Shown here: positions 24,768 through 57,965 of the stretch, piece after piece
How the letters are laid out: each line of letters begins with the position of its first letter
Position numbering within the stretch: the stretch's first letter is position 1
Assembly (NCBI GenBank): GCA_963803805.1
Contig: CAWDOD010000007.1
Span: 174,328 to 238,327, forward strand
DNA length: 64,000 nt
DNA from: an uncultured cyanobacterium
Lineage (GTDB): Bacteria; Cyanobacteriota; Cyanobacteriia; Cyanobacteriales; CAWCAG01
Direction: 5' to 3'
Notes under the pieces: generated by a model
Seen by the model: the letters and a program-made list of their open reading frames with translations, nothing else
What the model was told of the DNA's origin: nothing
The model's database searches: none
Position numbers and translations under genes: made by a program

Positions 24768-27700
24768 TCAATCGTTTCTCAACAAACAACTAGCAAAAGC
24801 CTGAGAAGTCAGTATAATTTCACCATCCGGTAATTCAAACCAACCTTGCACTTCTTGAATCGATTGATCTGAATGAGATTGCTGTGTATCACTTAATGAT
24901 GTAACCGATGTATTCAGACTATCAATACTACTACTCAATGGATCAGAAGGGTTAGAAGGTAAACCAGCCCTGCCGATGTCGATAAAGACAGAATTTTTCT
25001 CTCCATTACTTCCTACAGCACAACCTTCAGGTAAACCTTCATCTAAAAAACGATCATCTAAGGGATTAAGGCGCAGATTGTCATTAACATTGATCTCAAC
25101 AGTACCATCAATTCCTAACTCAGAACTAGCAGTAAAATCGCTTTCAGAGGTGTTAACCTTTTCAAAGAGTCTAAAACCAAAAATCCCTTTTGCTGTAGCA
25201 GTAATATTACCACCTTGACCTTGTAAAGAACTGGCAATAATATCACTATCTTCTGCAAGAATCGCAACAATAAAGTCACCAACTCTCAGGGTCATATTAC
25301 CACCGCTACCTGTACCATTCGCATTGGTCAAAATATCGCTATCCTGGCGCAGAATCACTGATTTATCTACAAAAAGTTGAATGTTACCGCCATTAGCATT
25401 AATTGTTTCTGTTGTCAGCCTTGCACCGTTGGTCATATTAACAGATTCTGCATTGACTAGTATGTCCCCTGCATTACCTGAGTTGTTACCACTAAGATTA
25501 ACTTGCCCACCATTTTCTATGTTTAACAGCTTTGTATTAATTTCAATACCTTGGGCATTACCAGAACCAGAAGAAGCAAAGACAAGACGACTAGCTTGAC
25601 CACTATTGGCTACACCACTTACTTTCACTAAGTCTGAAGCATTAACAACTAAAGTTCCGCCTTGACCATCGCTAACAGTGGATGCGGATACTTCCCCTCC
25701 ATCTTCAACCAGTAATTGACTGGTGTTAATGACAAAATTACCTGCATTGCCACCACCAAAAGTATCTGATGATAAACCACTTCTAACCTGACCATTAGGG
25801 GTAGTACCTACAACTTTTACAAACTCTGAAGCATTAATAACAACATTTCCAGCTTGTCCTTGTCCTGATGTCGAGGCAAAAATCCTTGCACCTTCTTGAA
25901 GGGTTAATTGCTTAGTATTAACTGTTAAATTTCCGGCATTTCCTGTACTTGTTGCCCCTAAAAATATGCCGCTAAAGTTAGCATTGTTAACTGGATTAAA
26001 ATCGTTACCGATCAAAGTAGCTGACTCGCTGGCATTAACAGTTATTGTCCCCCCTGTTCCTGTACCTTGACTAAAAGCAGAAACGAAAGAACCATTTTCT
26101 AGTTGCAAAGTCTTAGCTTGCATATCAATAACTCCTGCATTGCCATCACCGTTAGTGTTGACGAAAATAAAGCCTCTGTTTAAAGATATACCTTGTTCTG
26201 CGGTTAGAGTAATTTGTCCTGAATCTCCGTTACTGCCTAGGCTATTCATGTCAGCAATGTCACTATTAGCATAAATACCAGAAGTGTTTTCAATATTAAT
26301 TTCTTGAGCATCAACACTGATATTTCCTGCTGTTGCTGTACCGATTATTGCCGTTGTACCAGCAGTCCTTGCAGATAATTCTGCACCATTTTGCAAGGTA
26401 AAACTGCCACCACTACTAAGATTAATATCACCTCCTTTCAGAGTAGATGTGTCTGTATAACTCTCATTAAAAATTCCTTGAGATAATACCAAAGGCGCGT
26501 CGCTGTGGACTCGGACATTGCCTCCCAGTAATCCTCTAGCAAGAATCTCTGCATTAGTAGTAAGTGTTCCTGTTCCTAAGATAGTTACATCGCCACCATT
26601 ACCACCGTAAGTATTAAGTGGTAAACCTCCTCCTATATTTTGATCAAGGGCAGAAGCATTTATACCACCTTGCAAAGTTGTATCTCCCCGTGAATCAATC
26701 TGTATAGAACCCCCTCCCTGTACTTCTCTAGTATCTATAACTCCATTAACTGCAATTCCTCCCGGTAAGCTATTAGGAAAGAATTGATTTGTTAAAACGA
26801 CTCTACCTCCGTCACTACCAGCAAACCCAAAAGCAGTAACAATTTCTCCCGTGGTAATATTGGCATTTGCTAGAGGTGTAGAAAATCTAGGCGGTGGGTT
26901 AGCAGTAAAGAAAGAATTACCATCAATTACACTGTTGTCAGGAGTAGGAATCCCCCCTAAAGCGTTCCAATCAATGCCTGCCCGTATGTCTAAGGTTGGT
27001 CTAGCATTACCATTAATCGTCGGGACTGCTGTACCATCTGATAAATTAAAGTTTGCTAAATCACTATAGGTTGTAGTTGCGTTAATATTGTTTGTATTTC
27101 CAGGGTTAATAGAGTTATTTCCTGTTTCTAAATTATCAATTAATACATCGCCTAAAGCGACGCTACCTCCAGCTAGAATATGCAAAGAAGCACCCTGATA
27201 ATCCCCTAAAATCACATCCCCAGAAGTAATAATTATTGGATCATCAGGACTAAATAAATCTCCTAAACTCCCATCTAATTTCTCCACACGAAAATTCCCC
27301 CCACTCCAATAATGGGCATCACCACCCACTGCATTACCAGAACGCAAAGTTAAATCTCCCCCAGCAAACAAACCACTATCAGGATGATTCAGGGCAAAAA
27401 TATCCACTTTCTCATCACCCTGGACCAACAACTCTCCTCCCGCAGCAGCTACAAAAGGGTTAGTAACACTATCCCTAATCTTCACTTCGTTTGTCGCCAC
27501 TAAGTTAACATCACCGCCACCTTGTACTTCACCAGTTAAATCTAAATTCCGTCCTACCAAGGTTAAATCTTGCCCCACAAGTAACTTACCTCGGTTAACA
27601 ATTTCCGCACGGGGAACATTGTTTCCATACTGCAAACCAGGACGTATATTAACTGTTAAAAGAGGAGGTGCATCGGGATTAGTAGCACTAAATTCTCTCC

Positions 27701-28136
27701 CATTTTCTAGCAACAAACTATCAGCAGTGCTAACGAAAAAAGACCCAGCAATATCTAAACGGGCATTTTCGCCAAAGAAGACACCGTTAGGATTAATTAA
27801 GAATAAATTTGCCGTACCGTCAACCCCTAAAGTACCTAATATTTCTGAGGGATTGTTACCAGTTACGCGGGTTAATATATTGTTGATTGCTGCTGGATTT
27901 TCAAAGTAAACCCGTTGCAATTCCCCGACATTAAACTGACTGAAACTGTGAAAAAGATTAGTACCACGAATAGCGCCGCCAGTGATTAATTCTCCTGGTA
28001 GGCCCTTGATTTGGGTATTGTTGATGATTTGGGAGTTTTCTTGTCCCAAGGTTGCATCAGGGGTGATTTGGGCTTGCAGAGGAGAAGCAGAGAAGAGGGT
28101 TGTAGTGAGTAGTAATAAGGTGGTTAGTTTGGACAT
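24768..28136 (-). CDS. Filamentous haemagglutinin N-terminal domain protein (TpsA-like)
   Basis: AQITPDATL, NLFHSFSQFNV, NILTRVTG, ANLFLINPNG; Gly/Asn-rich beta-helix repeats; C-terminal ITASSELG-like and GRAGLP motifs. Confidence 0.93.
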   Translation of the reverse strand: MSKLTTLLLLTTTLFSASPLQAQITPDATLGQENSQIINNTQIKGLPGELITGGAIRGTNLFHSFSQFNVGELQRVYFENPAAINNILTRVTGNNPSEILGTLGVDGTANLFLINPNGVFFGENARLDIAGSFFVSTADSLLLENGREFSATNPDAPPLLTVNIRPGLQYGNNVPRAEIVNRGKLLVGQDLTLVGRNLDLTGEVQGGGDVNLVATNEVKIRDSVTNPFVAAAGGELLVQGDEKVDIFALNHPDSGLFAGGDLTLRSGNAVGGDAHYWSGGNFRVEKLDGSLGDLFSPDDPIIITSGDVILGDYQGASLHILAGGSVALGDVLIDNLETGNNSINPGNTNNINATTTYSDLANFNLSDGTAVPTINGNARPTLDIRAGIDWNALGGIPTPDNSVIDGNSFFTANPPPRFSTPLANANITTGEIVTAFGFAGSDGGRVVLTNQFFPNSLPGGIAVNGVIDTREVQGGGSIQIDSRGDTTLQGGINASALDQNIGGGLPLNTYGGNGGDVTILGTGTLTTNAEILARGLLGGNVRVHSDAPLVLSQGIFNESYTDTSTLKGGDINLSSGGSFTLQNGAELSARTAGTTAIIGTATAGNISVDAQEINIENTSGIYANSDIADMNSLGSNGDSGQITLTAEQGISLNRGFIFVNTNGDGNAGVIDMQAKTLQLENGSFVSAFSQGTGTGGTITVNASESATLIGNDFNPVNNANFSGIFLGATSTGNAGNLTVNTKQLTLQEGARIFASTSGQGQAGNVVINASEFVKVVGTTPNGQVRSGLSSDTFGGGNAGNFVINTSQLLVEDGGEVSASTVSDGQGGTLVVNASDLVKVSGVANSGQASRLVFASSGSGNAQGIEINTKLLNIENGGQVNLSGNNSGNAGDILVNAESVNMTNGARLTTETINANGGNIQLFVDKSVILRQDSDILTNANGTGSGGNMTLRVGDFIVAILAEDSDIIASSLQGQGGNITATAKGIFGFRLFEKVNTSESDFTASSELGIDGTVEINVNDNLRLNPLDDRFLDEGLPEGCAVGSNGEKNSVFIDIGRAGLPSNPSDPLSSSIDSLNTSVTSLSDTQQSHSDQSIQEVQGWFELPDGEIILTSQAFASCLLRND

Positions 28137-28270: not shown

Positions 28271-28412
28271 GTAGGGGCGACCCGCCTACGTTGTTTTTGT
28301 ACCTCACAAACCAATAAAATTGGGTCGCCCTTTCGGGGTTTATGGGTAGGGAGGGCGACCCAAGATGATTTGTTTTTGGGTTGCCAAAGTTATGTCAACG
28401 GGTCGCCCCTAC
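28271..28412. repeat. 142-bp REPIN-like element (left of RAYT)
   Basis: Bounded by inverted GTAGGGGCGACCCG / CGGGTCGCCCCTAC, with an internal inverted pair TTGGGTCGCCCT / AGGGCGACCCAA. Confidence 0.85.
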
Positions 28413-28942
28413 GGATTGGGATGGGCGATCGCTTGGATATTCATTGAATCCGTTGCCCAGTCCAGAGGATTATTGACAATGTAAGCTCGGATTTTTTCTA
28501 AAGCAAATTCGTCGGGAATAATTCGGTCATAAAAGTTTCTTTGCCATACTTGTAACTGGGAATTTCTGTTCGCAATTCTCCATTTTTTGGTAACTTGAGA
28601 CTTGAACTGCCCAATGATGGCGCTTACAGAATTAGCTGTGGGGCCATTTCTTATTTGAGAAATAGGTTTAGGGAGAGGAAACTTTCTATTAATAATCATG
28701 ATGCCATGAAAATGATTGGGCATAATAACATAGCTATCTAACTCAATGTAAGAACGTACTTTAGGAGTTATAAGCCATTCATGTTCTACAATTTTGCCAA
28801 GGGGAGAAAGTTGTACTAATCCGGCCACAATTTTGCTAAGAGTGCATTCTTTGCGGTAGGTACAAATAGTAATAAAGTAAGCTCCCGATTGAGTATAATC
28901 ATATCCCGGTAAACGACGGGAAGAACGATGGTAGTTAGACAC
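28409..28942 (-). CDS. REP-associated tyrosine (Y1/HUH) transposase, RAYT-like
   Basis: RLPGYDYTQSGAYFITICT, MPNHFHGI (HUH), WQRNFYDRII, IRAYIVNNP. Its stop codon lies inside the flanking REP. Confidence 0.9.
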   Translation of the reverse strand: MSNYHRSSRRLPGYDYTQSGAYFITICTYRKECTLSKIVAGLVQLSPLGKIVEHEWLITPKVRSYIELDSYVIMPNHFHGIMIINRKFPLPKPISQIRNGPTANSVSAIIGQFKSQVTKKWRIANRNSQLQVWQRNFYDRIIPDEFALEKIRAYIVNNPLDWATDSMNIQAIAHPNP

Positions 28943-29296: not shown

Positions 29297-32200
29297 TTAA
29301 ACTCCAGGAACACGGATATAGCGATCAGGATTACTCGCTGTGTAATCAACAATTCGGTGTAGTGTACCTGCCCCACCACCATCAAAATTAGTGTTGTAGT
29401 GTGATTCTGAAAGAACAACTCGTTTGACTCCATTTTGGTAGTAAGTTTTCTCAACTACAGCTACATGATTTTGACCATTCCTTGTCCATTGTGCAATATC
29501 ACCTGGTTGAGGATCGCTAACGATATACGCTCCATTGGATAGCTGATAGTGCCATTGGTTTGCATTGCCTGACATTGAGTTTAAAGCGGCAGGATTACCT
29601 CCTAATTCTTTCACGCGCCCGTGCGCGTACCAAGTACAATTACCTTCAGTTCTACTGTATCCATCAACTAAATTTGAGCCATAACTTGCCTGGGAAAAAA
29701 TATTTCCTGTTGTGTAAAACTGAGGACGAGCTTTGAAATAGTTTACTCCTTGCTGAGTAAGTAGAGGTGTTTTAACAGTACCTCCGCCTCCACCTCCACT
29801 ATCTCCGCTACCTTCACTTATATAATAAGCAGCAACATAACCCACCTGACCATTAGCTTCAATCTCATACCAATCAGTCCGATTACCTGGATAATAAGCA
29901 CCACCAGAAACTTGCTTGCGAATTGTCACCGCAGTTCCTTTAGGTAACTTGCCAATAATAGTAGAACCACTAACAGAAGGTTTGTTGCGGAAATTGAGAG
30001 AAACATTACCTACATTAGCATTAACATGACCTTTCTTCGTAGTATTGCCAGGATCGGAACTGCCACCGGGTTGAATAGGAGGCTTAGAATTGGGATAGCC
30101 GAAAATGTAAGCACTGGGAACCCAATAAGCTTTACCATCACGCCAGTAACGATACCAGAGAGCATCAGGCTTATCAGTCCAAATATCATTAACAGACTCC
30201 CCGTAAGTCCAGCCATCGAAATGCAAAGTCTTTTTGTAAGGTTCAGCTAAACCACTGCGGTCTTCATGCTTAGGGCTATTACGCAAAGCTACGCCAATAC
30301 TAGGCCCTACCCAACCGGAGAAATTCTCCGCACGAAAATCAGTTGGTTGAGAAACAATATCGACATAGTAGGCAGCGACAAAACCTTGCTGCCCATCTAC
30401 CTCGACTTTGTACCACTCATCACTTAAACCATTCTCGTAACTTTTTCCTTTGACAGACTCCAAAACCTTCAAAGTTTTTCCTTTAGGAAGCTGGCCAATC
30501 AGATTATCTCCTCTTACTTCAGGAGAAGTTCGGAAATTGAGAGGGTCATTTCCTACTTTAGAATTAACCACACCAGATTTAGGTGGTGCAGGCTGAGGTT
30601 GAGGCTTGGGACTAGGGGGAGGGTTGGAACCAGTTGCGCTACCTGTGAAGAATTTCTCAATGCCACGGGCAATAGCATGACCCGCTTTTTCTACATTGCC
30701 ACGGCTCATCCCTGGTGCATCAATAAACAAAGATTCTGTGAGAACGGCAGGAACCCCTAAAGGAGCATTGCGTAATACAGATAAATCTTTTGTTTTTACT
30801 CCCCGATTAGGAATCTCGTTATCAGGAAAGACAGCATCTAGTTCACTGTTGACAGCTTTAGCTAGTTCAGAATCAGCACTGGGTGCATTGGGATGAGAAT
30901 AAACTTCGTGGCCTTGGGCATCCTTGTTAAAGGCATTGAGATGCAAAGAAACAAACAGATCGTATCCAGCAGCCCGTTGACCAATCTGTGCTAAGGATAT
31001 AGCTTCATCAAGGATTTTTACCTCTGCACCGAGTTGGCGTAGGTGTTCAGCAACAATTTTTGCTTGGTGTAAGTTTTCTGTTGCTTCATTTGTACCATTA
31101 CCACCAGCACCAGGATCGAACCCTGTATCAGTAATACCATGGCCTGGATCGAGGATAATCTTTTTACCAGCGAGGGTATTAGTATTTGGAACTGGAAAGT
31201 TTTGGAAAACAGCACGTTCCCAAGGAGTAGTTGGTTCTTTCCCGATAGGAGGAGTTTGCTGCAATTTGGGGTTGTATACTTCTGGGTCAACGGTTCTTGC
31301 CAAACTAACTGCCGCAGCAATGTTTAGCAATCCTGCCCCTGTTTCTAAATCTTCTCCTAACTCGTTTATATCTGCTGCTGTAGATTTGAGGATGTCAATT
31401 ACTTGGCGATAATTCAAATTAGGGTTCGCAGCCCAAACTTGAGAGGCAGCCCCCGTTACCTTCGCGGTAGCAACAGAAGTACCAGCCATTGTCCCTACAC
31501 CATTACCAACAGTAGATACGACTGGAGTTTCTAAGTTGCCACCATTAGCAACAATGTCCAACCCTTCGCCATGATTTGAATATTCAGCCCGATCAAAGCC
31601 TTGCCAAACAGAAGTTTCACCACTAATTTGTTCTGCTGAACCTACGGTAATAACGTTATCAAAATGCTGAGAAGCTTGTCCCAAAGCTGACATAACTTCA
31701 CCCTCATTTCCTGCGGCAACGGCAACGAGAACATTGTTTTGACGGGCATATTCTAAAGCTGCCATTTCTGAGGGGGTAAACTCATAACGGGTGGTTTCTA
31801 CACCATCAATATCAATTTGAGTTAAATCAAAGCTTAGATTTGCGATTCCATTAGGTTGCCCCGACTCCCTAGCTGCATCTACAAACTCCATTAAAGATTC
31901 CGCCCATTCACCTGAACCAACAGCCCTTCCTAACCAAAGGGGTGCATCATCATTGATACCATCAATCCCAATATCATTATCATTCTGGGCTGCGACAATA
32001 CCTAAAACATGAGTACCATGTTCATTGCCTTCTCCTGGGGTTAGCAAAGGGTTAGCATCGTTGGCAATCTTATCTGTTCCTAAACTAATTTTTTCATAGT
32101 CTAAGTCAGGATTATCACCACTAAATCCAGTATCAATAAAGCCAATCAGAGGTTGGTCTTCAACAGGGAAATTATAATCGGTAACAGGAGGATCTACTTG

Positions 32201-33097
32201 AGGGTTAGCATATTCTAAAATAGCTTCCCCTAAATCGCTGTCTCGCCACTCTTTCCCCTCTTCAATGACATTATCTAGTAATTCAGCTTCTCCGGTTGCC
32301 CCACGTACTTGGAAAATTAAATCGTTGTAATCCCTATCAGAGTTATCATCAACCCGCCAGTCTTCCATCACAAAGGTGTTGCCATCCCCCGTTACATCAG
32401 CAATTTGTCCTAAATGGAAAGCATCATCAGGGTTGGCTGTAGCCACAGAGAAAAGAGGACGCAAATTACCTTTGTCAGGATTATCGAGAAACTCTTCTAC
32501 AGTGCCGTTAGGAATAAGCATAAAACCGAAGCGATCGCCCGGCTTCATTTTTACAGGATCTCCTTGTTGATAAATACCAGAGTTACGATCAGCTTCTCCT
32601 AATTCCCCGGAAAATTTTGCCCCTTCAGTAGCATCAGAAATAACAACATGACCTAATTCAGAATCACTCAAAGCTCGGTTAGCAGCTTCAAAACTAAAGT
32701 CTTCCGACTCTGGGTTCAACCCTTCTAAACTAAAGATGGCTAACTCTCCTTCGTAACCACCACCATCAAAGAGGAAGTCAACGGTTACTTCCCCAGTGTC
32801 CCCAACAGTAAAAACCCCTGAGTCGAAGTTGGGGGAAGAGATATCAGCTATTTCAGCTATTTGATCTGTTTCGAGTTCATCAAAGAAGCTAATCGGCTCT
32901 AATTCTTCATCGCTAAAGTCTTGGTCTATTTCTGCTAAAGGATCAATATCTTCTGGTAGATCAACGTCGAAGAGGGCTAAGTCAACCCCGTCATCACCGC
33001 CATCTAATAGCCCACTGGGGGTAAGAATTGGTTCTAAAATAAAGGCTTGAATTTTGGATTTGCCAGAACGAGAAGAGTTATTTTCAGGTAGTGCCAT
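29297..33097 (-). CDS. Multidomain secreted hydrolase: DUF4114-like, S8 subtilase, Amidase_3, SH3-like x3, CHAP
   Basis: FVMEDWR..SDRDYNDLIFQV (DUF4114-like); S8 triad IDTG / EHGTHV / GTSVA; amidase DPGHG, SLHLNA, LTESLF; SH3b-like LNFR..P....WY; CHAP GNCTWY and HVAVVE. Confidence 0.85.
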   Translation of the reverse strand: MALPENNSSRSGKSKIQAFILEPILTPSGLLDGGDDGVDLALFDVDLPEDIDPLAEIDQDFSDEELEPISFFDELETDQIAEIADISSPNFDSGVFTVGDTGEVTVDFLFDGGGYEGELAIFSLEGLNPESEDFSFEAANRALSDSELGHVVISDATEGAKFSGELGEADRNSGIYQQGDPVKMKPGDRFGFMLIPNGTVEEFLDNPDKGNLRPLFSVATANPDDAFHLGQIADVTGDGNTFVMEDWRVDDNSDRDYNDLIFQVRGATGEAELLDNVIEEGKEWRDSDLGEAILEYANPQVDPPVTDYNFPVEDQPLIGFIDTGFSGDNPDLDYEKISLGTDKIANDANPLLTPGEGNEHGTHVLGIVAAQNDNDIGIDGINDDAPLWLGRAVGSGEWAESLMEFVDAARESGQPNGIANLSFDLTQIDIDGVETTRYEFTPSEMAALEYARQNNVLVAVAAGNEGEVMSALGQASQHFDNVITVGSAEQISGETSVWQGFDRAEYSNHGEGLDIVANGGNLETPVVSTVGNGVGTMAGTSVATAKVTGAASQVWAANPNLNYRQVIDILKSTAADINELGEDLETGAGLLNIAAAVSLARTVDPEVYNPKLQQTPPIGKEPTTPWERAVFQNFPVPNTNTLAGKKIILDPGHGITDTGFDPGAGGNGTNEATENLHQAKIVAEHLRQLGAEVKILDEAISLAQIGQRAAGYDLFVSLHLNAFNKDAQGHEVYSHPNAPSADSELAKAVNSELDAVFPDNEIPNRGVKTKDLSVLRNAPLGVPAVLTESLFIDAPGMSRGNVEKAGHAIARGIEKFFTGSATGSNPPPSPKPQPQPAPPKSGVVNSKVGNDPLNFRTSPEVRGDNLIGQLPKGKTLKVLESVKGKSYENGLSDEWYKVEVDGQQGFVAAYYVDIVSQPTDFRAENFSGWVGPSIGVALRNSPKHEDRSGLAEPYKKTLHFDGWTYGESVNDIWTDKPDALWYRYWRDGKAYWVPSAYIFGYPNSKPPIQPGGSSDPGNTTKKGHVNANVGNVSLNFRNKPSVSGSTIIGKLPKGTAVTIRKQVSGGAYYPGNRTDWYEIEANGQVGYVAAYYISEGSGDSGGGGGGTVKTPLLTQQGVNYFKARPQFYTTGNIFSQASYGSNLVDGYSRTEGNCTWYAHGRVKELGGNPAALNSMSGNANQWHYQLSNGAYIVSDPQPGDIAQWTRNGQNHVAVVEKTYYQNGVKRVVLSESHYNTNFDGGGAGTLHRIVDYTASNPDRYIRVPGV

Positions 33098-33344
33098 TTT
33101 AATTATCTGGTAAGAAAAATCAAATTTGCTGTCTTACCTTCTTCTCAGGGTGATAAACCACTATTTATGCACTGAGATACATTTCTTTACAATCAGAGCC
33201 TTTAACCCATAACTTCAGTAAAAGTATAGTTTTGTAACAAAATCGGTAATTGTGCATAAAAGACTAGGGGTCAGACCTGAGAACAAATAGAAGGCTCAAC
33301 TAATTCCATAACTAACCATCTGTTTTCTCTTGCCATAACCAACC

Positions 33345-34538
33345 ATGTTCAAACAAAAACCAGGGCAGCACTTTTTCTTACTTTTCCCCAACATCTTCAA
33401 CTTCAAAGGGGGTATACAAGTTTACTCTCGCTTTCTTTTAGAAACTCTCCAGGATTTATATCCTGAAGCTAGTTATGAAGTTTTTCTGAAATACGACAGT
33501 AAATTCCCTCAAAACCATTCCTTTCTGCCGCAAACTAACTTTCACTGCTTAGGTAAATTTCCTCGTTGGTGGCAAAGTTTCTTTTTATTACTACAAACAG
33601 TTATTCTTGGTACTTTACAACGCCCAACCTTAGTTATTGCCACCCACATTAACTATGGAATAGCCTGTTATTGCCTGAAAAAATTAACTGGCACTCCCTA
33701 TTGGGTTGTCATTCATGGTTTGGAGGGGTGGAACATAGAAAATCCTCTGTTGCAAAGGGTTTTACAATCTACTGATAAAACCATTGCGGTAAGTGAGTAT
33801 ACCAGGAAACGTTTGCTTAAAGAACAACCGCTTTCCCCCCAACAAGTAGCTATTTTACCAAACACCTTCGATCCTACACAATTTCGCCCTCAACCAAAAC
33901 CAGCTTACCTGCAACGGCGTTATGGTTTAACCCCAGATCAACCTGTAATTCTGACGGTAACTCGCTTAGGGACTTCAGCAACCTACAAAGGTTACGAACA
34001 AGTACTTCAGGCTTTAGTTAAGCTACGTCAACAAATCCCCAACTTACATTACCTTTTAGGTGGAAAAGGGGATGATCTTCCCCGAATACACAGTTTAGTA
34101 CAGCGACTCGATTTAACTGACTGTGTAACTTTGACAGGATTTATTCCTGATGAAGAATTATGTGACCATTACAATCTTTGTGATGTCTTTGCTTTACCTA
34201 GTCGAGGTGAAGGTTTTGGCATTGTCTATTTAGAAGCCCTTGCCTGTGGTAAGCCCGTATTAGCAGGGTGCGGGGATGGGGCAGTAGATCCTTTAGGGCA
34301 AGGAGAATTAGGTTGTTTGGTGAACCCAAATGATGTTGCAGAAATTGCGGCTAAACTCCAAGAAATTTTAGAAAAAACTTACCCTAATACTTTGCTATTT
34401 TCTCCCCATCTACTCCGGGAAAAAACTATCAGACGTTATGGTGTAGCTCAATTTTGTCATACCTTAGCTAATTTGGCTGACTTTGAGACATCGGTAGCAA
34501 ATCCCCGTCCCTACCCATCATTGATAACTGGTAACTAA
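33345..34538 (+). CDS. GT4 (family 1-type, GT-B) glycosyltransferase
   Basis: KGGIQVY, ILTVTRL...YKGYEQV, FALPSRGEGFGIVYLEALACGKPV. Confidence 0.92.
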   Translation: MFKQKPGQHFFLLFPNIFNFKGGIQVYSRFLLETLQDLYPEASYEVFLKYDSKFPQNHSFLPQTNFHCLGKFPRWWQSFFLLLQTVILGTLQRPTLVIATHINYGIACYCLKKLTGTPYWVVIHGLEGWNIENPLLQRVLQSTDKTIAVSEYTRKRLLKEQPLSPQQVAILPNTFDPTQFRPQPKPAYLQRRYGLTPDQPVILTVTRLGTSATYKGYEQVLQALVKLRQQIPNLHYLLGGKGDDLPRIHSLVQRLDLTDCVTLTGFIPDEELCDHYNLCDVFALPSRGEGFGIVYLEALACGKPVLAGCGDGAVDPLGQGELGCLVNPNDVAEIAAKLQEILEKTYPNTLLFSPHLLREKTIRRYGVAQFCHTLANLADFETSVANPRPYPSLITGN

Positions 34539-34539
34539 A

Positions 34540-35973
34540 ATGGCTGATTATAGTAACTGGATTTGCCCTGATATTAGACCCTACTGGAAACTAGTGAGGG
34601 AAAAGAATTCTCAGCAATTAGTCCTTGCTGCAATTCAGGGGGAAGCTAAACATTTTCTCTCTGCAACTGAAGCCTATGCTTTACGATACTTTGTCGGCAA
34701 ACTTACTGTAGTCCAAGTACAAAAGAACTGCAACAAGAGGCTGCAAACTGCTGCTTCCCCTAACTTGGTAACAGAATTAATAGCAAAACTGATTAAGCTT
34801 GAGGTTATTTCCTTGGAAAGTGATTCGGAGTTGGCAAAGCCTCAAAGTCCCCAATCACATCAACTTAAACCCTGTTTACAATGGGTTAAACCTGCCCCAG
34901 AATATTGGATTTTGCGTAACCCGGAAGATGTTACCTTTCTCCAGTTTGATAACCGTAGTAAGGAAGCGGTTGAACAAATTGGGCAAATACCTCCCCAGGA
35001 GATTGTTCATCGGTTTGACATCACTCCCCAAGAGTTACAATACCTGCTGCAAATACTGGCAGCAACGGGGATGTTAGCTGGAACCCATCCTGGTAAACCG
35101 AAAAAAGGTAAGTTTCATCCTATGCAACTACTATTTTTTAAGCTTAAACTCTTCAATCCCGATCCTTGGTTGACTAATGGGGTTAAATACTTGCAGTGGA
35201 TTTGGACTTCCGCTTTCAGTTTCATACTTTGCATTTTCTTAGGATTATCAGGGGCAGTAGGATTTAATCAACGGCGGGAAATTCTCCACCAAGGGCAGGA
35301 ATTGTGGTTAAGATCAGGAACTTCCTTGCTCTTCTGGTTTGCAGTTCTTTCTTTAACAGTGGTAGCTTTGCATGAACTTGGCCACGCTTTTACCCTTAAG
35401 CATTATGGGGGCATTGTTCCGGAAGTTGGCTTACTCTTCATGTGCCTCTTTCCTGCTGCCTATACCAACACCAGTGATTCCTACTGCTTGCCTAAATTTA
35501 AGCGTGTTTTAGTTGTGGGGGCGGGGATAATTGTACAAGTTACTTTAGCTGCGGTGGGTTTGTTATTCTGGCACATTTCCCTTCCTGGAACCTGGTTGCA
35601 TACTGGTAGCTTTCTCCTTATGGCTGGGGCTTTATTCACTGTCACCATTAATCTTAATCCTTTAGCTAAGTTCGACGGCTATTACCTCGCCGTTGCAGCT
35701 ACAGGCATCAACAACCTCCGCAGCCGTGCCTTTGGTTTGTATGGTAACTTGCTCCGGTTGCAACCGATACAAGAAACCTGGCGCGATCGCCTGATTTTAG
35801 CAGTCTATGCCCCTTTTAGTCTTGTTTATATTTGGTTTGTGTTCGGTTTCCTTTTTTATCGCTTAGGAGACTGGATTTTAAGCAATGTACCCATGACAGC
35901 CCTGATTTTGCTAATTATCTGGGCAATTTATTTTTACTTTCCTCGCTCCTCCACTGCAAAATCAGAGAGCTAG
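34540..35973 (+). CDS. M50 (site-2 protease fold) membrane protein with two N-terminal PqqD/RRE-like domains
   Basis: HELGH at 35371-35385, NLNPLAKFDG, multiple TM helices. Two repeats of about 75 aa with a beta-beta-beta/helix-helix-helix pattern ending LIKLEVI and LAATGML. Confidence 0.8.
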   Translation: MADYSNWICPDIRPYWKLVREKNSQQLVLAAIQGEAKHFLSATEAYALRYFVGKLTVVQVQKNCNKRLQTAASPNLVTELIAKLIKLEVISLESDSELAKPQSPQSHQLKPCLQWVKPAPEYWILRNPEDVTFLQFDNRSKEAVEQIGQIPPQEIVHRFDITPQELQYLLQILAATGMLAGTHPGKPKKGKFHPMQLLFFKLKLFNPDPWLTNGVKYLQWIWTSAFSFILCIFLGLSGAVGFNQRREILHQGQELWLRSGTSLLFWFAVLSLTVVALHELGHAFTLKHYGGIVPEVGLLFMCLFPAAYTNTSDSYCLPKFKRVLVVGAGIIVQVTLAAVGLLFWHISLPGTWLHTGSFLLMAGALFTVTINLNPLAKFDGYYLAVAATGINNLRSRAFGLYGNLLRLQPIQETWRDRLILAVYAPFSLVYIWFVFGFLFYRLGDWILSNVPMTALILLIIWAIYFYFPRSSTAKSES

Positions 35974-35982
35974 AAACAGGTA

Positions 35983-36003
35983 TTACCTATTACCCATTAC
36001 CTA
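35983..36003. repeat. STRR-type heptamer array (TTACCTA x3, one variant)
   Basis: TTACCTA TTACCCA TTACCTA immediately before the HlyD start codon. Confidence 0.7.
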
Positions 36004-36005
36004 TC

Positions 36006-37568
36006 ATGAATAACCCAAACTTGCCTCAAAACACACCAAAGTTTCGTGTTGTCCCCTCTAAAACGACCAAAAAACCACAACCCCAAACTCCTCCTCCAGA
36101 ACCTCAAGATAAACAAGTTGCAGAAGCAGTTAATTCTAATCAGGGTAGGAAAAAATTAGTTATTCTAGGGGGCATCTGCTTGGGATTAGGAATTCTTGCT
36201 TTGATTCCCATACCTAATTATGTTACTGGCAAAGCGGAAATAACCTCCCGTGTTAATGCCCGACAACGCTTGACAATGCCCGTTGATGGCATTGTGGAAA
36301 TTAAGGTAGAAAGTAACGAAGAAGTGCAAAAAGGAGATGTTATTGCTACAATTGATAGTCCTGAATTAGATAAAGAAATTGCCCAAGCAAACCGTTCCCT
36401 CAAGGAAGCTAAAGGGGAACTAACGGCAGCTAAAAATCAATTAAGTTTGAGTAAAAGCCGCTTAAATCTCGCCCAGCAAGAAGAAGCGATCGCAACTTCT
36501 CAAGTAACTAGGGAACATCGACAGTATGGTGATGCCCCTAAGTTACGTCAATTTGATTATGAACAAGCCGGCATACAGGAGGAGATTACAGGGGTACAGA
36601 GTGAGATAGTTGGTATTAACAGTCAAGTTGTTGCTACTAAAAATAAAATTGTCGGATTGCAAGGAGAAATTGCCGGTTTAACCCAACAGCTAAGTAATGT
36701 AGAAGAACGTATCCAAGCGAGAGAATATGTGTCAACTCAAGGAGGCTTAGCAAGATTAGATCAAGAAACGGCAGCTTTGAAGATACAAAGAACTGAGTTA
36801 AATAACGATATCAGCCAAAAACGCCACCAAATCATCAACCATGAACAAGAAATTGTCCAAATTCAAAGTCAAATTAAACAACGGCAAAGTGTAATTGCTA
36901 GCAAGTCCAAAGATATTAATTCCCTATCTGAACGAAGCAAGGATGTTAATCACGAATTGGGAGATGATTTGAATAGTTATGAAAATAGTTTAACTCTTAA
37001 AGCTGCTCAAAGAGACACTGCAACCAAAGATTTTGAGGCAACAGTAGCCCAGGTGAATAGTAAAACTCAGTTGGTAGAACAGTGGGAAGATGAGGTGGCA
37101 AGGTTAGAGGCACAAAAGAATAATTTGACCTTAATTGCCGAAACTCCAGGGACTGTAATTACCCAAGAGATAGACTTAACCAGTAATAGTAGCCTCCAAG
37201 CAGGGGAAGATATTTTAGAAATAGCAGATTTGAAGCTTTTAGAGGCTAAGGTTGCAGTACGTCAAGAAGATCATAACTTGGTTCAGGAAACCCAAACTGT
37301 TACCTTCCAACCCAAAGATGCTAAGAGTTCCCGTTACAAAGCTAAAGTGCAGGAGAAAGATTCTATCATCATCGTCGAAAATCCTGGAGAGAGTCCCAAG
37401 TTAGGAGTAAGAATCTTGATTGAGAATGATAATAAGTTACTGTTACCAGGGGGTGAAGGTTATGCCCATATTAAAACTGGCAAGATGCCTATTTATAAAA
37501 AAGTTAACCATGAGTTGAGTAAGTTAATTGATTTGGGTAAATATTTCCCTTGGTTAACTGGTGAATGA
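36006..37568 (+). CDS. HlyD-family membrane fusion (periplasmic adaptor) protein
   Basis: Single TM helix, lipoyl-like VQKGDVIATIDSPEL, long coiled coil, AETPGTVIT, GEDILEIAD, LLPGGEGYAHI. ATG at 36006 preferred. Confidence 0.88.
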   Translation: MNNPNLPQNTPKFRVVPSKTTKKPQPQTPPPEPQDKQVAEAVNSNQGRKKLVILGGICLGLGILALIPIPNYVTGKAEITSRVNARQRLTMPVDGIVEIKVESNEEVQKGDVIATIDSPELDKEIAQANRSLKEAKGELTAAKNQLSLSKSRLNLAQQEEAIATSQVTREHRQYGDAPKLRQFDYEQAGIQEEITGVQSEIVGINSQVVATKNKIVGLQGEIAGLTQQLSNVEERIQAREYVSTQGGLARLDQETAALKIQRTELNNDISQKRHQIINHEQEIVQIQSQIKQRQSVIASKSKDINSLSERSKDVNHELGDDLNSYENSLTLKAAQRDTATKDFEATVAQVNSKTQLVEQWEDEVARLEAQKNNLTLIAETPGTVITQEIDLTSNSSLQAGEDILEIADLKLLEAKVAVRQEDHNLVQETQTVTFQPKDAKSSRYKAKVQEKDSIIIVENPGESPKLGVRILIENDNKLLLPGGEGYAHIKTGKMPIYKKVNHELSKLIDLGKYFPWLTGE

Positions 37569-37588
37569 AGTTTTTCACTTTCCTTAAG

Positions 37589-38070
37589 CTGTTAATGATA
37601 TTAAACGAGCTGTTCGAGAACGAGCAAAATATCTCTTTTACTTAGCTATTAACGAATTTCTTGAATTTGACAACTATAAATTACGATCTGCTGGTAAAAA
37701 GTGGGAAGTTTACGAACTAGGTGCTTCTCAAATTGATTTGTCACATCCCTACGAAAATTCAGTTCAAATAACACACATTTTTATTGACGAACAAAATAAA
37801 AAGAGTTCAAAAACATTTGAATCTTTCCCCCGGACAGGAAAAATTTCCAGAATGTTTGCGGAAAATTCTATCAGGGCTAACAAACATAATCTCTGGCCTG
37901 GCTACTTTGCGAAATACTATGAGTGATTCTCATGTTATATCCTATAAACCATTAAACCATCAGAGCATCACGCAAGGTTAGCTTTTAATTCGGCTAAAAC
38001 ACTTTGTTACTTTCTATTTGAAACGAAAGAGTATCAAGTGCAGAAGAAAAACGTATCATCTAATAGCTAG
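37589..38070 (+). pseudogene. Degraded abortive-infection (Abi_C/AbiJ-like) gene
   Basis: Fragments across frames: INEFLEFDNYKL...HIFIDEQ, then LRKILSGLTNIISGLATLRNTMSDSH, then YKPSEHHARLAFNSAKTLCYFLFETKEY after removing an 8-bp duplication. Confidence 0.65.
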
Positions 38071-38122
38071 AAGTTTATGGAAAAGCTTGGTAAAATGAAT
38101 AATCACTCAAACAAAATTAGAA

Positions 38123-38587
38123 ATGGTTGCTCATTATTATTATTATTGCTGTTCCCTTCCCTTAGAATCTGGTAGTATTATAAAACCGGGAAATTGGGGA
38201 AGAATAATGAAAAAATATACTCCTCACACATCGCCAAACATTTTGACTTTGACAAGAGAGCTAATATTTGAACAAGTAAGGTTTAAATATTTCTCAGGAA
38301 AGCCAAGCCGATTTGAGTCGATTTTTATCTGTCCTGATGAAGATACTATTATTAATTTTAGAAATACTTCTAATAGAGTATTAGATATAATTTACAAAGT
38401 AGAATTGGTTGATAGTGACGAACCCCAGCACAGGGGAGACTATAATAGAGCGGCTGACATTAGATCAGATGATAACTTTAAATCTATAGAAGAAAAAGCA
38501 AAAGATTACTGGCAGGGCAACGATATTTCAAATGTAGAACTAGTTACAACAAGTAGAATAAGAATAGTTGAAATGACAAGAGAATAG
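38123..38587 (+). CDS. DUF2441-like protein (possible ADP-ribosyltransferase fold)
   Basis: RELIFEQVRFKYFSGKPSRFESIFIC resembles DUF2441; AT-rich sequence. Confidence 0.55.
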   Translation: MVAHYYYYCCSLPLESGSIIKPGNWGRIMKKYTPHTSPNILTLTRELIFEQVRFKYFSGKPSRFESIFICPDEDTIINFRNTSNRVLDIIYKVELVDSDEPQHRGDYNRAADIRSDDNFKSIEEKAKDYWQGNDISNVELVTTSRIRIVEMTRE

Positions 38588-50408: not shown

Positions 50409-52160
50409 ATGCCTGAAATGAAAACTTTGACTGTCACCAATACAGCAGATAAAGGGAAAGGTTCTCTGCGAGAGACAATCAATAATGCGAAGTCAGGAGA
50501 TAGGATTATTTTCGCTTCTGGTTTGGCTAACAAAACAATTAACATTAGCAGGCTTAGGTTTGATATTGATAAGGATCTAACCATAGATGGAAACAATGCC
50601 CCCGGCTTAACTATTAGCGGTGGCAAAAAGAATCAAATATTTCATTTGAAGGGAAATAATCGAGAATTCAATCTACGTAACCTAACTTTAGCTGACGGCT
50701 TTGTGAAAAATGGTCCTGGGGCAGCTATATGGGCAGCTAATGCTCAAGCCAAAATAGAAGTAGAAAATGTCGTTTTCACCAATAACATTTCCCGTACAGG
50801 AAGTGCAATATGGGCTAAAGATGGGGCTGAGGTTACAGTAATTGGCAGTCAATTTGATGGCAACAAAGCGACTAAGACAGGTTCTGATGTTGCCGCAGGA
50901 GCGATCGCGGTTTTTGATCAAAGTGAACTTGTGGTTCAAGGTAGCAAGTTTACAAACAACCAAGGAGATGCTGGGGGGGCGATTAGTACTGTTTTTACAG
51001 AGGTAATTATTGAAGACTCTGAGTTTATCAACAACAAAAGTAGAAGATTCAGCGGTGCAGTTAATATTGATGGGGCGAGCATCCCTACGCGAGATCGCTA
51101 CAACCCAGCGAATCTAGTCGGAGATGGTCAACCAGGAGAAATAATCCTCAAAAATAACCTCTTTAAGAAGAACCAAGCTACAGATTCGGGTGGGGGCTTA
51201 ACAGTGTGGGGTTATGACCAGGATTCAGTATTGATTGATAACAATACTTTCATCGGCAACAAAGTAAGTAAGAATTCAAGAGGCGAAGCAAGGGGAGGAG
51301 GACTGCGGGTAGCAGGTTTTGCTACCATCAAAAACTCGACATTTACCAACAATGAATCAGAGCAAAATGGTGGTGGTTTATGGTATCAAGGAGAAGTTCC
51401 TATTAAGGTTATTAATAGTAACTTTTCTGAGAACAAAGCCAAAGAATTTGGTGGGGCAATTTATAACGGACAATGGGGTAGCGAAACGACTATCAAAGGT
51501 ACAGAATTCATCAAAAACTTAGCAGGAAAAGAAGCAGGAGCTATTTATACCGCGAAGAATCACCCTATTACCATCGAAGATTCTATTTTTGATGATAATG
51601 AAGCCAACAACATCGCTGCCACGAAAAACTCGAACTATGAAGTTGTCCGCAAAGCTAGCGACAAGTTTTTGCTAACAGAAGAAAATATTCTTTATCAAGG
51701 TGATCGCCGGGAAGATCAATTTACTGGAGGGGAGGGGGATGATCTTCTTCTAGGAAGCGGTGGCAATGATACCTTGATAGGACAAGGAGGTAATGATACC
51801 CTCCAAGGAGATAGCGGTAAAAATATTCTTGACGGTGGGGCAGGTAATGATCGCTTCATTGGTGGTACAGGACAAGATATCTTTATCGGCGGTTTAGGTG
51901 CTGACAAGTATATCCTTGGTGATCGTAGGGAGAGTTTTTACAATAAGACTCGTAACCAAGATCAAGCTATTATCCAAGATTTTGATGCTGATGAAGATAC
52001 CATCCAACTCAGGGGTAAGGCTTCTGATTATAGTTTAGGTTCTATTACTATAGGTAAGCACTCAGGTACAGGCATTTTCGGTAACAATCTCATTGCTTTA
52101 GTAGCAGATGTAGATCCCAAAGATTTTAACCTCAAAGCTGATTATGTTGATTATGTTTAA
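50409..52160 (+). CDS. RTX-type secreted protein with parallel beta-helix (POMP-like GGAI/FxxN repeats), copy 1
   Basis: TVTNTADKGKGSLRETI N-motif; GGAI / F..N repeats; GGxGxDxL nonapeptides; no signal peptide. Confidence 0.85.
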   Translation: MPEMKTLTVTNTADKGKGSLRETINNAKSGDRIIFASGLANKTINISRLRFDIDKDLTIDGNNAPGLTISGGKKNQIFHLKGNNREFNLRNLTLADGFVKNGPGAAIWAANAQAKIEVENVVFTNNISRTGSAIWAKDGAEVTVIGSQFDGNKATKTGSDVAAGAIAVFDQSELVVQGSKFTNNQGDAGGAISTVFTEVIIEDSEFINNKSRRFSGAVNIDGASIPTRDRYNPANLVGDGQPGEIILKNNLFKKNQATDSGGGLTVWGYDQDSVLIDNNTFIGNKVSKNSRGEARGGGLRVAGFATIKNSTFTNNESEQNGGGLWYQGEVPIKVINSNFSENKAKEFGGAIYNGQWGSETTIKGTEFIKNLAGKEAGAIYTAKNHPITIEDSIFDDNEANNIAATKNSNYEVVRKASDKFLLTEENILYQGDRREDQFTGGEGDDLLLGSGGNDTLIGQGGNDTLQGDSGKNILDGGAGNDRFIGGTGQDIFIGGLGADKYILGDRRESFYNKTRNQDQAIIQDFDADEDTIQLRGKASDYSLGSITIGKHSGTGIFGNNLIALVADVDPKDFNLKADYVDYV

Positions 52161-52218
52161 GACTAGAGAATGAAGTGATCGCCTCAGTCTTAAAGAATAA
52201 GCAATATTTTTATAACAG

Positions 52219-52252
52219 GTCAGTGAAGAGTCTTTTCTTTCACTGACTTTTT
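52219..52252 (+). terminator. Probable intrinsic terminator after RTX gene copy 1
   Basis: 9-bp stem GTCAGTGAA / TTCACTGAC followed by TTTTT. Confidence 0.65.
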
Positions 52253-52435
52253 CTTGCTTCTTACTTTTCATATCTCTAGCGAAATCGTATAAACACGATG
52301 CTTTGTAGAATTATCTCCTCATGCAAAATCAATTTACTAAGTATAATTTTTTACTTTCTTAAACAAAAATAAATTGTTAATGTTATAAATACTCACTAAT
52401 ATGTAACAATTACTTAAATTATTTAAGATACCTAT

Positions 52436-54178
52436 ATGCAAACTTGGACTGTCACTAATACAGCAGATAAAGGGAAAGGTTCTCTGCGAGAGACAATTGC
52501 TCAGGCTAAATCAGGAGATAGGATTATTTTTGCTTCTAGTTTAGCCAAGAAAAAGATTGTCCTTGGTAAACGCAGGTTTAATATTGATAAGGATCTAACC
52601 ATAGATGGAAACAATGCCCCCGGCTTAACTATTAGCGGTGGCAAAAAGAATCAAATATTTCATTTGAAGGGAAATAATCGAGAATTCAATCTACGTAACC
52701 TAACTTTAGCTGACGGCTTTGTGAAAAATGGTCCTGGGGCAGCTATATGGGCAGCTAATGCTCAAGCCAAAATAGAAGTAGAAAATGTCGTTTTCACCAA
52801 TAACATTTCCCGTACAGGAAGTGCAATATGGGCTAAAGATGGGGCTGAGGTTACAGTGATTGGCAGTCAATTTGATGGCAACAAAGCGACTAAGACAGGT
52901 TCTGATGTTGCCGCAGGAGCGATCGCGGTTTTTGATCAAAGTGAACTTGTGGTTAGAGGCAGCAAATTTACCAGAAACCAAGGAGATGCCGGGGGGGCAA
53001 TTAGTACTGTTTTTACAGAGGTAATTATTAAAGACTCTGAGTTTATCAACAACAAAAGTAGAAGATTCAGCGGTGCAGTTAATATTGATGGGGCGAGCAT
53101 CCCTACGCGAGATCGCTACAACCCAGCGAATCTAGTCGGAGATGGTCAACCAGGAGAAATAATCCTCAAAAATAACCTCTTTAAGAAGAACCAAGCTACA
53201 GATTCGGGTGGGGGCTTAACAGTGTGGGGTTATGACCAGGATTCAGTATTGATTGATAACAATACTTTCATCGGCAACAAAGTAAGTAAGAATTCAAGAG
53301 GCGAAGCAAGGGGAGGAGGACTGCGGGTAGCAGGTTTTGCTACCATCAAAAACTCGACATTTACCAACAATGAATCAGAGCAAAATGGTGGTGGTTTATG
53401 GTATCAAGGAGAAGTTCCTATTAAGGTTATTAATAGTAACTTTTCTGAGAACAAAGCCAAAGAATTTGGTGGGGCAATTTATAACGGACAATGGGGTAGC
53501 GAAACGACTATCAAAGGTACAGAATTCATCAAAAACTTAGCAGGAAAAGAAGCAGGAGCTATTTATACCGCGAAGAATCACCCTATTACCATCGAAGATT
53601 CTATTTTTGAGAATAATAGAGCGAAACAAATAGCAGCCACGAAAAACTCGAACTATGAAGTTGTCCGCAAAGCTAGCGACAAGTTTTTGCTAACAGAAGA
53701 AAATATTCTTTACCAAGGTAATGGTAGAGACAACAAAATTACTGGTGGTAAAGGCGATGATCGCCTAGAAGGACGTGGCGGAAATGATATTTTAATAGGG
53801 GGGGCCGGTAATGACATCCTCCAAGGAGATAGCGGTAAAAATATTCTTGACGGTGGGGCAGGTAATGATCGCTTCATTGGTGGTACAGGACAAGATATCT
53901 TTATCGGCGGTTTAGGTGCTGACAGGTACATCCTGGGCGATAGTCGAGGCAGTTTTTACAATAAGACCCGTAATCAAGGTCAAGCTGTTATCAAAGATTT
54001 TAATACTGATGAAGATACTATCCAACTTAGTGGCAAACCTTCTGACTACAGGTTAGGTTCTATTACTGTAGGTAAGCACTCAGGTACAGGCATTTTCGAC
54101 AATAATCTCATTGCTGTGATAGCAGATGTCAAACTCAAGGAATTTAGCCTTAAAGCCGACTATATAGATTACATCTAA
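52436..54178 (+). CDS. RTX-type secreted beta-helix protein, copy 2
   Basis: Near-identical to 50409-52160 at a 2018-bp offset over the central region. Confidence 0.85.
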   Translation: MQTWTVTNTADKGKGSLRETIAQAKSGDRIIFASSLAKKKIVLGKRRFNIDKDLTIDGNNAPGLTISGGKKNQIFHLKGNNREFNLRNLTLADGFVKNGPGAAIWAANAQAKIEVENVVFTNNISRTGSAIWAKDGAEVTVIGSQFDGNKATKTGSDVAAGAIAVFDQSELVVRGSKFTRNQGDAGGAISTVFTEVIIKDSEFINNKSRRFSGAVNIDGASIPTRDRYNPANLVGDGQPGEIILKNNLFKKNQATDSGGGLTVWGYDQDSVLIDNNTFIGNKVSKNSRGEARGGGLRVAGFATIKNSTFTNNESEQNGGGLWYQGEVPIKVINSNFSENKAKEFGGAIYNGQWGSETTIKGTEFIKNLAGKEAGAIYTAKNHPITIEDSIFENNRAKQIAATKNSNYEVVRKASDKFLLTEENILYQGNGRDNKITGGKGDDRLEGRGGNDILIGGAGNDILQGDSGKNILDGGAGNDRFIGGTGQDIFIGGLGADRYILGDSRGSFYNKTRNQGQAVIKDFNTDEDTIQLSGKPSDYRLGSITVGKHSGTGIFDNNLIAVIADVKLKEFSLKADYIDYI

Positions 54179-54197
54179 ATTCGTTATTATCTTATCA

Positions 54198-54857: not shown

Positions 54858-54928
54858 CTATTGCTTTTTCATTTTTGACTCTCTAAAAAATGGCAGACTA
54901 TTAAATTAATTAAAATAAGCTGTAGTTC

Positions 54929-54956
54929 TTACCTATTACCTATTACCTGTTACCTA
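54929..54956. repeat. STRR-type heptamer array (TTACCTA x4, one variant)
   Basis: TTACCTA TTACCTA TTACCTG TTACCTA. Confidence 0.8.
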
Positions 54957-54997
54957 TTAGATCACCTATGGGGGTGATCTAATATACCTGATAGCTT

Positions 54998-57913: not shown

Positions 57914-57965
57914 TTGTAAAATTCAGAACTAAAAATTACCACCTATTACCTATTGCTTGAAAATA

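Follow-up and report, generated by a model that had tools for sequence, protein, structure and literature searches.

A tandem-RRE site-2 protease of cyanobacteria and its candidate leader on large, signal-less proteins

RiPP recognition elements (RREs) are treated as a hallmark of the biosynthesis of RiPPs, small peptides that are made by ribosomes and modified after translation, and are used to mine genomes for RiPP clusters. What would such domains read in a locus that offers no small precursor peptide? The question is raised by a gene at positions 34540..35973 (+) of a 64,000-nucleotide stretch of DNA from an uncultured cyanobacterium (contig CAWDOD010000007.1 of assembly GCA_963803805.1; hereafter, the window). 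This open reading frame (ORF) encodes a 477-residue membrane protein in which two tandem RRE-fold domains precede an M50 (site-2 protease) core. The original prediction, made from the sequence alone, held that the RRE-like domains would read a leader belonging either to a large protein or to some unlinked peptide. Our analysis favors the large-protein option, because a leader is seen on a neighboring protein of 1266 residues and on 27 large neighbors of related proteases, because it occurs only in genomes that encode the protease, because its spacing is that of a daptide leader, and because no small precursor was found. We consider it reasonably probable that the protein is a daptide-type (MpaP) RRE-guided leader peptidase whose RRE has been duplicated, and which has been repurposed for large proteins and coupled by an adaptor to export.

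The membrane core of the protein spans residues of about 208-466 (35161..35937, +), as placed by invariant motifs, hydrophobic segments (218-243, 259-281, 320-349, 417-440, and 442-468), and Foldseek. Both hallmarks of M50 proteases are present, the HExxH motif within a transmembrane helix as HELGH at residues 278-282 (35371-35385, +), at the end of the second hydrophobic segment, and the NxxPxxxxDG motif that supplies the third zinc ligand as NLNPLAKFDG at residues 371-380 (35650-35679, +). In an alignment of 56 homologs, H278, E279, H282, N371, N373, P374, D379, and G380 are invariant, which bears out the earlier assignment of an M50 core with intact motifs. An AlphaFold2 model of the whole protease (mean pLDDT 81.9) places after the second RRE-fold domain a helical membrane core that includes a beta hairpin (296-309), and Foldseek matches the core fold to SpoIVFB (8vjl, E 1.7e-3) and MjS2P (3b4r, E 3.8e-3), with a probability of 1.00. 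A phmmer search against PDB sequences gave a weak match to MjS2P only, and the Pfam M50 model (PF02163) scored 19.6 bits, under its gathering threshold of 27.2; PF02163 matches are precomputed for many homologs of the protease. Motifs and model together indicate that the protein is probably a zinc-dependent site-2 protease with intact catalytic motifs. Its N-terminus has no signal sequence, and a linker of charge +6 precedes the first hydrophobic segment, so that the RRE-fold domains would lie in the cytoplasm. HELGH is predicted at the cytoplasmic face of the membrane, a topology compatible with cytoplasmic presentation of a leader, for which the SpoIVFB-pro-sigmaK complex is a parallel.

Two N-terminal segments, placed by the original prediction at about 34570-34810 and 34860-35080, agree well with the two domains delimited by DSSP of the models, D1 (residues 16-86; 34585..34797, +) and D2 (residues 114-175; 34879..35064, +). 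Both are β3-α3 modules with an identical order of elements, three strands and then three helices (D1: E16-20, E27-31, E37-40, H42-48, H57-68, and H76-86; D2: E114-119, E122-127, E132-136, H138-145, H152-158, and H163-175), and a disordered linker (93-104) separates them in the model. That the two segments are related, as had also been claimed, stood at the level of profile and fold only: BLASTP of D1 against D2 gave no alignment, whereas hhalign of the two family profiles gave an in-register one (P = 2.8e-4, probability 41%), and the kinship of D1 and D2 is accordingly weak but real-looking.

The winged-helix fold expected of this region was recovered, and its structural matches are solved RREs. 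When the whole model was compared with the PDB by Foldseek, ThcOx ranked first (225 aligned columns, E 2.6e-4), followed by the site-2 proteases SpoIVFB and MjS2P and, further down, mostly by solved RREs (TbiB1, CteB, LynD/TruD, TigE, lasso B1, and SuiB), with TbiB1, present with its leader, reaching a TM score of 0.69 normalized to the target. D1 modeled alone (pLDDT 89.4) retrieved RRE proteins as 12 of the first 14 matches and 14 of the first 18, including TbiB1, CteB, ThcOx, lasso B1, McbB, TigE, PqqD (5sxy), and LynD, with TM scores of 0.47-0.60, probabilities of 0.75-1.00, and E-values of 0.016-0.25. The TbiB1 alignment obtained with D1 alone was poorer than, and different from, that obtained with the full model; the better match is thus probably that of D2, which suggests that both domains are RRE-like. 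Profile searches of PDB and Pfam with D1 and D2 gave sub-threshold winged helix-turn-helix (wHTH) and PqqD matches only (PDB chain 3g2b, a PqqD, at E 0.4 for the D1 profile; Pfam PqqD, PF05402, in one of 22 D2 sequences at E 0.03).

D2 is likely the primary reader of a leader, since it occupies the place where the daptide protease MpaP has its RRE (the NCBIfam daptide match starts at residue 160), is the better conserved of the two domains (mean column identity of 62%, against 48% for D1), and is retained in proteins that have lost D1. Among the 56 aligned homologs K110, W115, W123, N127, and L173 of the D2 region are invariant, and D2 was found in all family members examined, including a subclade (L075, L077, and L080) from which D1 is absent and whose proteases still adjoin leader-bearing proteins. 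D1 could provide a second leader contact, for example with the basic stretch described below, or serve as a scaffold.

The family to which the protease belongs looks cyanobacterial and patchily distributed, as far as sequence searches tell. A word-indexed search returned 359 homologs at E ≤ 0.001, and among the best 120 of these the query coverage is 76-100% and the source names are all cyanobacterial. An exhaustive comparison of residues 1-190 with 1.84 billion representative proteins found 65 clusters only, with the match always N-terminal.

The putative substrate, or cargo, is the 1266-residue protein encoded, divergently from the protease, at 29297..33097 (−), which comprises a leader, an acidic linker, and, by Pfam, DUF4114, an S8 subtilase, Amidase_3, SH3 domains, and CHAP. 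It has no Sec-type signal and no transmembrane or hydrophobic segment anywhere, yet its domains are of types that act outside the cytoplasm (peptidoglycan hydrolase, wall-binding), in the periplasm or beyond the cell, and a non-Sec route would therefore be needed. We compared all ORFs of 80 related loci from species-representative genomes, and a homolog of this protein stands beside the protease in 35 of them, leader-bearing in 27. The 1266-residue protein and these 27 large neighbors share one N-terminal design, a basic stretch followed by FILEPILTPSG(L)xDGGDD and a strongly acidic linker (residues 29-100 of the cargo have a net charge of −24). In the large neighbors, DUF4114, the S8 subtilase, and variable peptidoglycan-hydrolase modules then follow in this order. 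CHAP, M23, LysM, LGFP, SH3, beta-propeller, and Calx-beta modules were found at the C-termini of the leader proteins examined, and by domain layout these proteins resemble a polymorphic family of secreted wall hydrolases. The leader core of the cargo, F19-G29 (FILEPILTPSG; 33011..33043, −), is conserved in cargo N-termini; among 25 of these, L21 and S28 are invariant, conservation is 90% or higher at E22, I24, T26, and P27, and L21-P27 is the most conserved stretch. No NCBIfam model matched the cargo N-terminus or the 25 leaders, and none of the leader or N-terminal-signal kind was retrieved.

Could a small peptide carry the same leader? Within the window, the N-terminal motif L[ED]x[ILMV]x[TA]P occurs on the 1266-residue protein alone and on no small ORF, and a small motif-bearing ORF was not found in the genome either, in line with the earlier remark that no small precursor is evident nearby. 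Across the genome, the motif stands near the start of exactly two frames, that of the 1266-residue protein and that of a paralog on contig C9, which begins MTSSKKRLQVHILEPILTPSGLFDGGED. This second leader gene (C9:49767-50894 and C9:52381-52980), in which HILEPILTPSGLFDGGED is followed by DUF4114, has no linkage to the protease. Its leader frame stops after 403 residues, some 1.5 kb ahead of an S8-like stretch; the gene may be interrupted or split. In another genome (G190), eight leader-bearing large genes accompany a single protease/adaptor pair (at loci L084-L086 and L089 and in five further places). They differ in their C-terminal modules (M23, CHAP, beta-propeller, and Calx-beta), and this set suggests an expanding, polymorphic cargo family.

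The closest precedent for a leader of this kind comes from the daptides. MpaP, an RRE N-terminally fused to a site-2 protease, has been described as an "RRE-dependent intramembrane peptidase" that removes the daptide leader (Ren et al., 2023; PMC10036551). Daptide precursors carry the leader motif ELExMEAP, which in MpaA comprises E(-8), L(-7), D(-6), P(-5), M(-4), E(-3), and P(-1). Of these residues, L(-7) and M(-4) are accommodated by hydrophobic pockets in an RRE, and the assayed step, which is RRE-dependent, does not proceed without them (PMC10036551). Cargo residues L21-E22-P23-I24-L25-T26-P27 align position for position with L-D-P-M-E-A-P of MpaA, giving a shared core of L-[DE]-P-[MI]-x-[AT]-P that ends in the proline preceding the daptide core. 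By analogy, we predict that the cargo is cut after Pro27 (TP/S), with nucleotides 33017-33097 encoding the leader and S28 becoming the new N-terminus. Double-glycine cleavage was also considered, but the GG that follows the motif shows only partial conservation, and this option was dismissed. For the protease itself, the best-scoring named family is likewise MpaP/DapP (NCBIfam NF041824, daptide_HExxH, the daptide intramembrane metalloprotease; residues 160-430), yet its 129 bits are far under the 300-bit cut-off, and the YydH/LiaK epipeptide protease model matched at 42 bits, also under cut-off. Several differences set the two systems apart. MpaP has one RRE and the cyanobacterial protease two RRE-fold domains; daptide substrates are peptides of about 30-50 residues ending in Thr, whereas the proteins here have 1,100-4,400 residues; the MpaB/C/D/M tailoring genes of daptide clusters are not among the conserved neighbors; and in place of the ABC (ATP-binding cassette) transporters that partner the daptide protease there is a HlyD adaptor, sometimes fused to the protease, in a diderm cyanobacterial host.

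Leader and protease also co-occur across genomes. Among 301 genomes drawn evenly from the phylum, the protease (E < 1e-120) was present in 19 and the leader (60-column model, E ≤ 1e-8) in 14, all of them within the 19 protease-positive genomes and belonging to seven families. None of the 282 protease-negative genomes contained a strong leader match and two contained weak ones (Fisher p = 3e-20, or 1e-17 with the weak matches counted against the association). One genus (g14) includes one genome with both protease and leader and two with neither. The matches, up to eight per genome, mostly open frames that are 1,144-4,442 residues long, and shorter leader frames (93-618 residues) lie mostly at contig ends or in truncated genes. 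Classes of leader follow the protease subclades, with FILEPILTPSG, FALDDIITPS (Nostocales-type), and LE[RK]I[VI]TPSA (the D1-less type) as the three forms; a comparison of leader variants with the β2-β3 hairpin of D2 revealed no consistent residue-to-residue compensation.

Besides the large protein, the only widely recurrent neighbor in the 80 loci is a HlyD-type periplasmic adaptor. In the window it is encoded at 36006..37568 (+; 520 residues from the ATG at 36006; Pfam HlyD_D23, HlyD_3, and Biotin_lipoyl_2), beginning 32 nt beyond the protease stop, and is predicted to have a cytoplasmic tail, one transmembrane segment (residues 48-75), and a periplasmic body. An adaptor of this type follows the protease in 57 of the 80 loci. 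In five of these 57, protease and adaptor form a single ORF (L007:7971-10931, L027:5382-8312, L037:7920-10868, L053:243-3134, and L057:261-2555), of 963-986 residues in the four complete cases and cut at the contig end in L057. Nine of the 65 clusters retrieved with residues 1-190 have 921-963 residues, the size of such a protease-adaptor fusion. A TolC-type gene lies on another contig of the genome.

These observations can be assembled into a working model. Two RRE-fold domains would sit in the cytoplasm, and chiefly D2 would capture the leader (ILEPILTP preceded by a basic stretch) of large proteins without a signal peptide, the leader extending the RRE sheet by one strand. In this genome, the substrates would be the 1266-residue DUF4114-S8-amidase-SH3-CHAP protein and the second leader protein on contig C9. 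The captured leader would then enter the HExxH/NxxPxxxxDG site on the cytoplasmic side of the membrane and be removed, by analogy after Pro27. The HlyD-type adaptor would join the protease to a TolC-type channel of the outer membrane and thereby tie processing to export. Leader binding, cleavage, the cut site, and inner-membrane crossing with its energy source are steps that we infer, and the export step is the least secure of them.

Several findings weigh against this model. In the PDB and Pfam profile searches, neither N-terminal domain was called PqqD or RRE at significance, and the Foldseek E-values of D1 as a single domain are modest (0.016-0.25). Four or five protease-positive genomes have no leader match, and the co-occurrence counts are phylogenetically non-independent, though the patchy distribution makes shared ancestry alone an unlikely explanation of them. 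One of the leader-negative genomes (G220) encodes, beside its protease and in divergent orientation, a protein of 2247 residues that starts ...QRLERLNTPSP, and by its sequence this leader appears simply to have diverged. The adaptor is missing in two subclades, the Nostocales-type loci and the D1-less type, and HlyD-dependent export therefore cannot be a universal function of the family. Its place is taken there by a small signal-peptide protein, of about 135 residues in Nostocales-type loci (L059:6703-7116 and L060:9431-9832) and about 225 in D1-less ones (L075:3120-3794, L077:9092-9766, and L080:9134-9826), which might substitute for the adaptor. The constant pair is thus the protease and a leader-bearing protein, with the adaptor as a frequent partner that is present here. 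A further difficulty concerns the inner membrane, where passage of a 1266-residue chain has no evident channel or energy source. Neither an ATPase nor a known translocase is conserved at the locus, as judged from the 80 neighborhoods, and the genome encodes the housekeeping SecA only (one SecA_DEAD match, in a 952-residue frame on another contig).

How might this difficulty be resolved? There is a substantial, though less than even, chance that the tandem-RRE protease, the HlyD adaptor, and a TolC-type channel constitute an undescribed and self-sufficient cyanobacterial secretion route that spans the envelope without an ABC, RND (resistance-nodulation-division), MFS (major facilitator superfamily), or Sec motor. 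Under such a scheme the ILEPILTP leader would be the address tag and the RRE its receptor, the protease would act as signal peptidase and inner-membrane gate at once, and the cargo would be polymorphic subtilase-linked peptidoglycan hydrolases directed against neighboring bacteria or used for filament remodeling. A more conventional solution would confine the protease to the roles of leader receptor and peptidase and assign translocation to an unlinked transporter, such as the cNMP-C39-ABC exporter at 54998-57913, to which, and not to the protease, HlyD would form the bridge. HlyD adaptors usually partner ABC, RND, or MFS pumps, no motor or channel is conserved at the locus, and all parts of a type I system are encoded 17 kb from it. 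The pairing of the protease with ABC transporters in daptide clusters is a further point in favor (PMC10036551). We nevertheless judge a separate transporter unlikely, considering that protease and adaptor are a single polypeptide in five of the 80 loci and in at least nine further representatives, which argues for mutual action, that no ABC gene (nor any RND, MFS, or Sec component) recurs in the 80 neighborhoods, and that the type I system in the vicinity comes with an HlyD and RTX substrates of its own.

Two other explanations are less probable still. The protease could be a classical RiPP leader peptidase with a small unlinked precursor as its substrate, the large neighbor being coincidental or secondary, and it is true that RREs and the nearest named families (the daptide and YydH/LiaK epipeptide proteases) act on small peptides and that two leader-model matches in one genome (G014) fall in frames of 93 and 131 residues. 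Those short frames, however, may be truncated, since the assembly has 250 contigs and they are on small ones, most leader matches (E ≤ 1e-8) start frames of 1,144-4,442 residues, and neither a small motif-bearing ORF in the window or genome nor a RiPP tailoring enzyme among the conserved neighbors of the 80 loci was found; this explanation is very improbable. Regulatory intramembrane proteolysis, in which DNA or a regulator would be the ligand of the winged helices and the protease would free a signaling factor as RseP and SpoIVFB do, is extremely improbable. Signaling is the classical role of site-2 proteases, SpoIVFB is a top structural match that cuts an N-terminal pro-sequence off a soluble protein, and there are weak sequence matches to DNA-binding wHTH proteins. 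Against this, the N-terminal domains have as structural neighbors almost exclusively RREs, which bind peptides and place three strands ahead of the helices, and not DNA-binding wHTH proteins; no sigma/anti-sigma gene is conserved nearby in the 80 loci, and the linkage and fusion to an adaptor point to the envelope and not to transcription.

Reading the protease as an adaptor-coupled, RRE-guided leader peptidase for large proteins places it among several known systems, each of which shares only part of its features. SpoIVFB (8vjl) and other site-2 proteases have the same membrane core fold and HExxH/NxxPxxxxDG site, and SpoIVFB, aided by a cytoplasmic domain, cuts the N-terminal pro-sequence off a soluble protein that reaches it from the cytoplasmic side; that domain is a C-terminal CBS domain, there is no N-terminal RRE, and the role is in signaling without a link to export. 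EpeP/YydH (NF058609) and the pearlin proteases TglG/TmoG are likewise M50 membrane proteases that mature ribosomal peptides. EpeP is reported as a probable exporter of its product as well as the enzyme that cuts it (PMC10885120). In the text consulted, no RRE is reported for these proteases; their substrates are small peptides, they have no adaptor, and the YydH match here is only the 42-bit one given above. ThcOx (5lq4), the top structural match, is a precedent for more than one tandem N-terminal RRE, additional copies having been stated for it (PMC8795117), but, unlike the protease here, it has an FMN oxidase as catalytic domain and acts on small cyanobactin precursors. In type I secretion (C39-ABC, HlyD, and TolC), too, a leader is cut at the inner membrane, a HlyD adaptor takes part, and the TolC-type channel is encoded elsewhere; here, by contrast, there is no ABC protein, the peptidase is an RRE-guided metalloprotease, and the leader is not of the double-glycine type.

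A similar gene arrangement in the literature is that of Kamneva, Poudel and Ward (2015; PMC4452313), who described modules of M50, HlyD, and a secondary SecA in Planctomycetes, Verrucomicrobia, Proteobacteria, and others and proposed an export-like machinery. As here, linkage or fusion to HlyD domains is seen for M50-like membrane proteins, and an ABC transporter is lacking. Those modules carry a second, truncated SecA_DEAD protein, whereas this genome has no second SecA and no GAF-HlyD gene is conserved near the protease, and the study omits cyanobacteria and does not mention RRE or PqqD domains (PMC4452313). Our literature search found the daptide paper and this one, and nothing on the cyanobacterial tandem-RRE protease family or its leader.

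Other genes of the window deserve brief description. A family 4 glycosyltransferase (GT4; 33345..34538, +; Pfam Glycos_transf_1) ends 1 nt before the protease start. Its orthologs (56-64% identity) adjoin the module in L014, L020, L028, L033, and L084, where they precede the protease or follow the adaptor, and in L063 the ortholog is far off on the opposite strand. The glycosyltransferase, an accessory gene, may modify the cargo or the envelope. Downstream of the adaptor, a DUF2441 protein (38123-38587, +) is encoded that is not conserved in related loci. On the other side of the cargo gene are a 177-residue ORF (28409-28942, −) with a weak IS200/Y1-transposase match and, beyond it, a 1122-residue protein with a two-partner-secretion (TPS) domain (24768-28136, −). 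The window also contains a separate canonical type I secretion unit (50409-59571), made up of two tandem RTX-repeat genes (50409-54178), the cNMP-C39-ABC exporter already mentioned (54998-57913; 971 residues), a HlyD (58180-59571; 463 residues), and a gene with a peptidyl-prolyl isomerase (PPIase) domain. A promoter and terminator scan of 32900-38200 gave counts not above those in shuffled sequences, and the sequencing runs containing the stretch comprise one metagenome DNA run and no RNA run.

The protease differs from known RRE-fused site-2 leader peptidases in its duplicated RRE, its putative protein-sized substrates, and its adaptor partner. A nearly identical leader core and the same RRE logic appear to be used here for proteins longer than 1,000 residues, and, if this is true, leader-guided processing extends from natural-product peptides to protein trafficking. 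One practical consequence is that RRE-based mining will retrieve these loci, which should not be taken for RiPP clusters. Another is that a portable tag of about 27 residues might send heterologous proteins to the envelope in cyanobacterial hosts. For the filamentous cyanobacteria themselves, the system is a candidate route for the release of large wall-degrading enzymes that lack a signal peptide.

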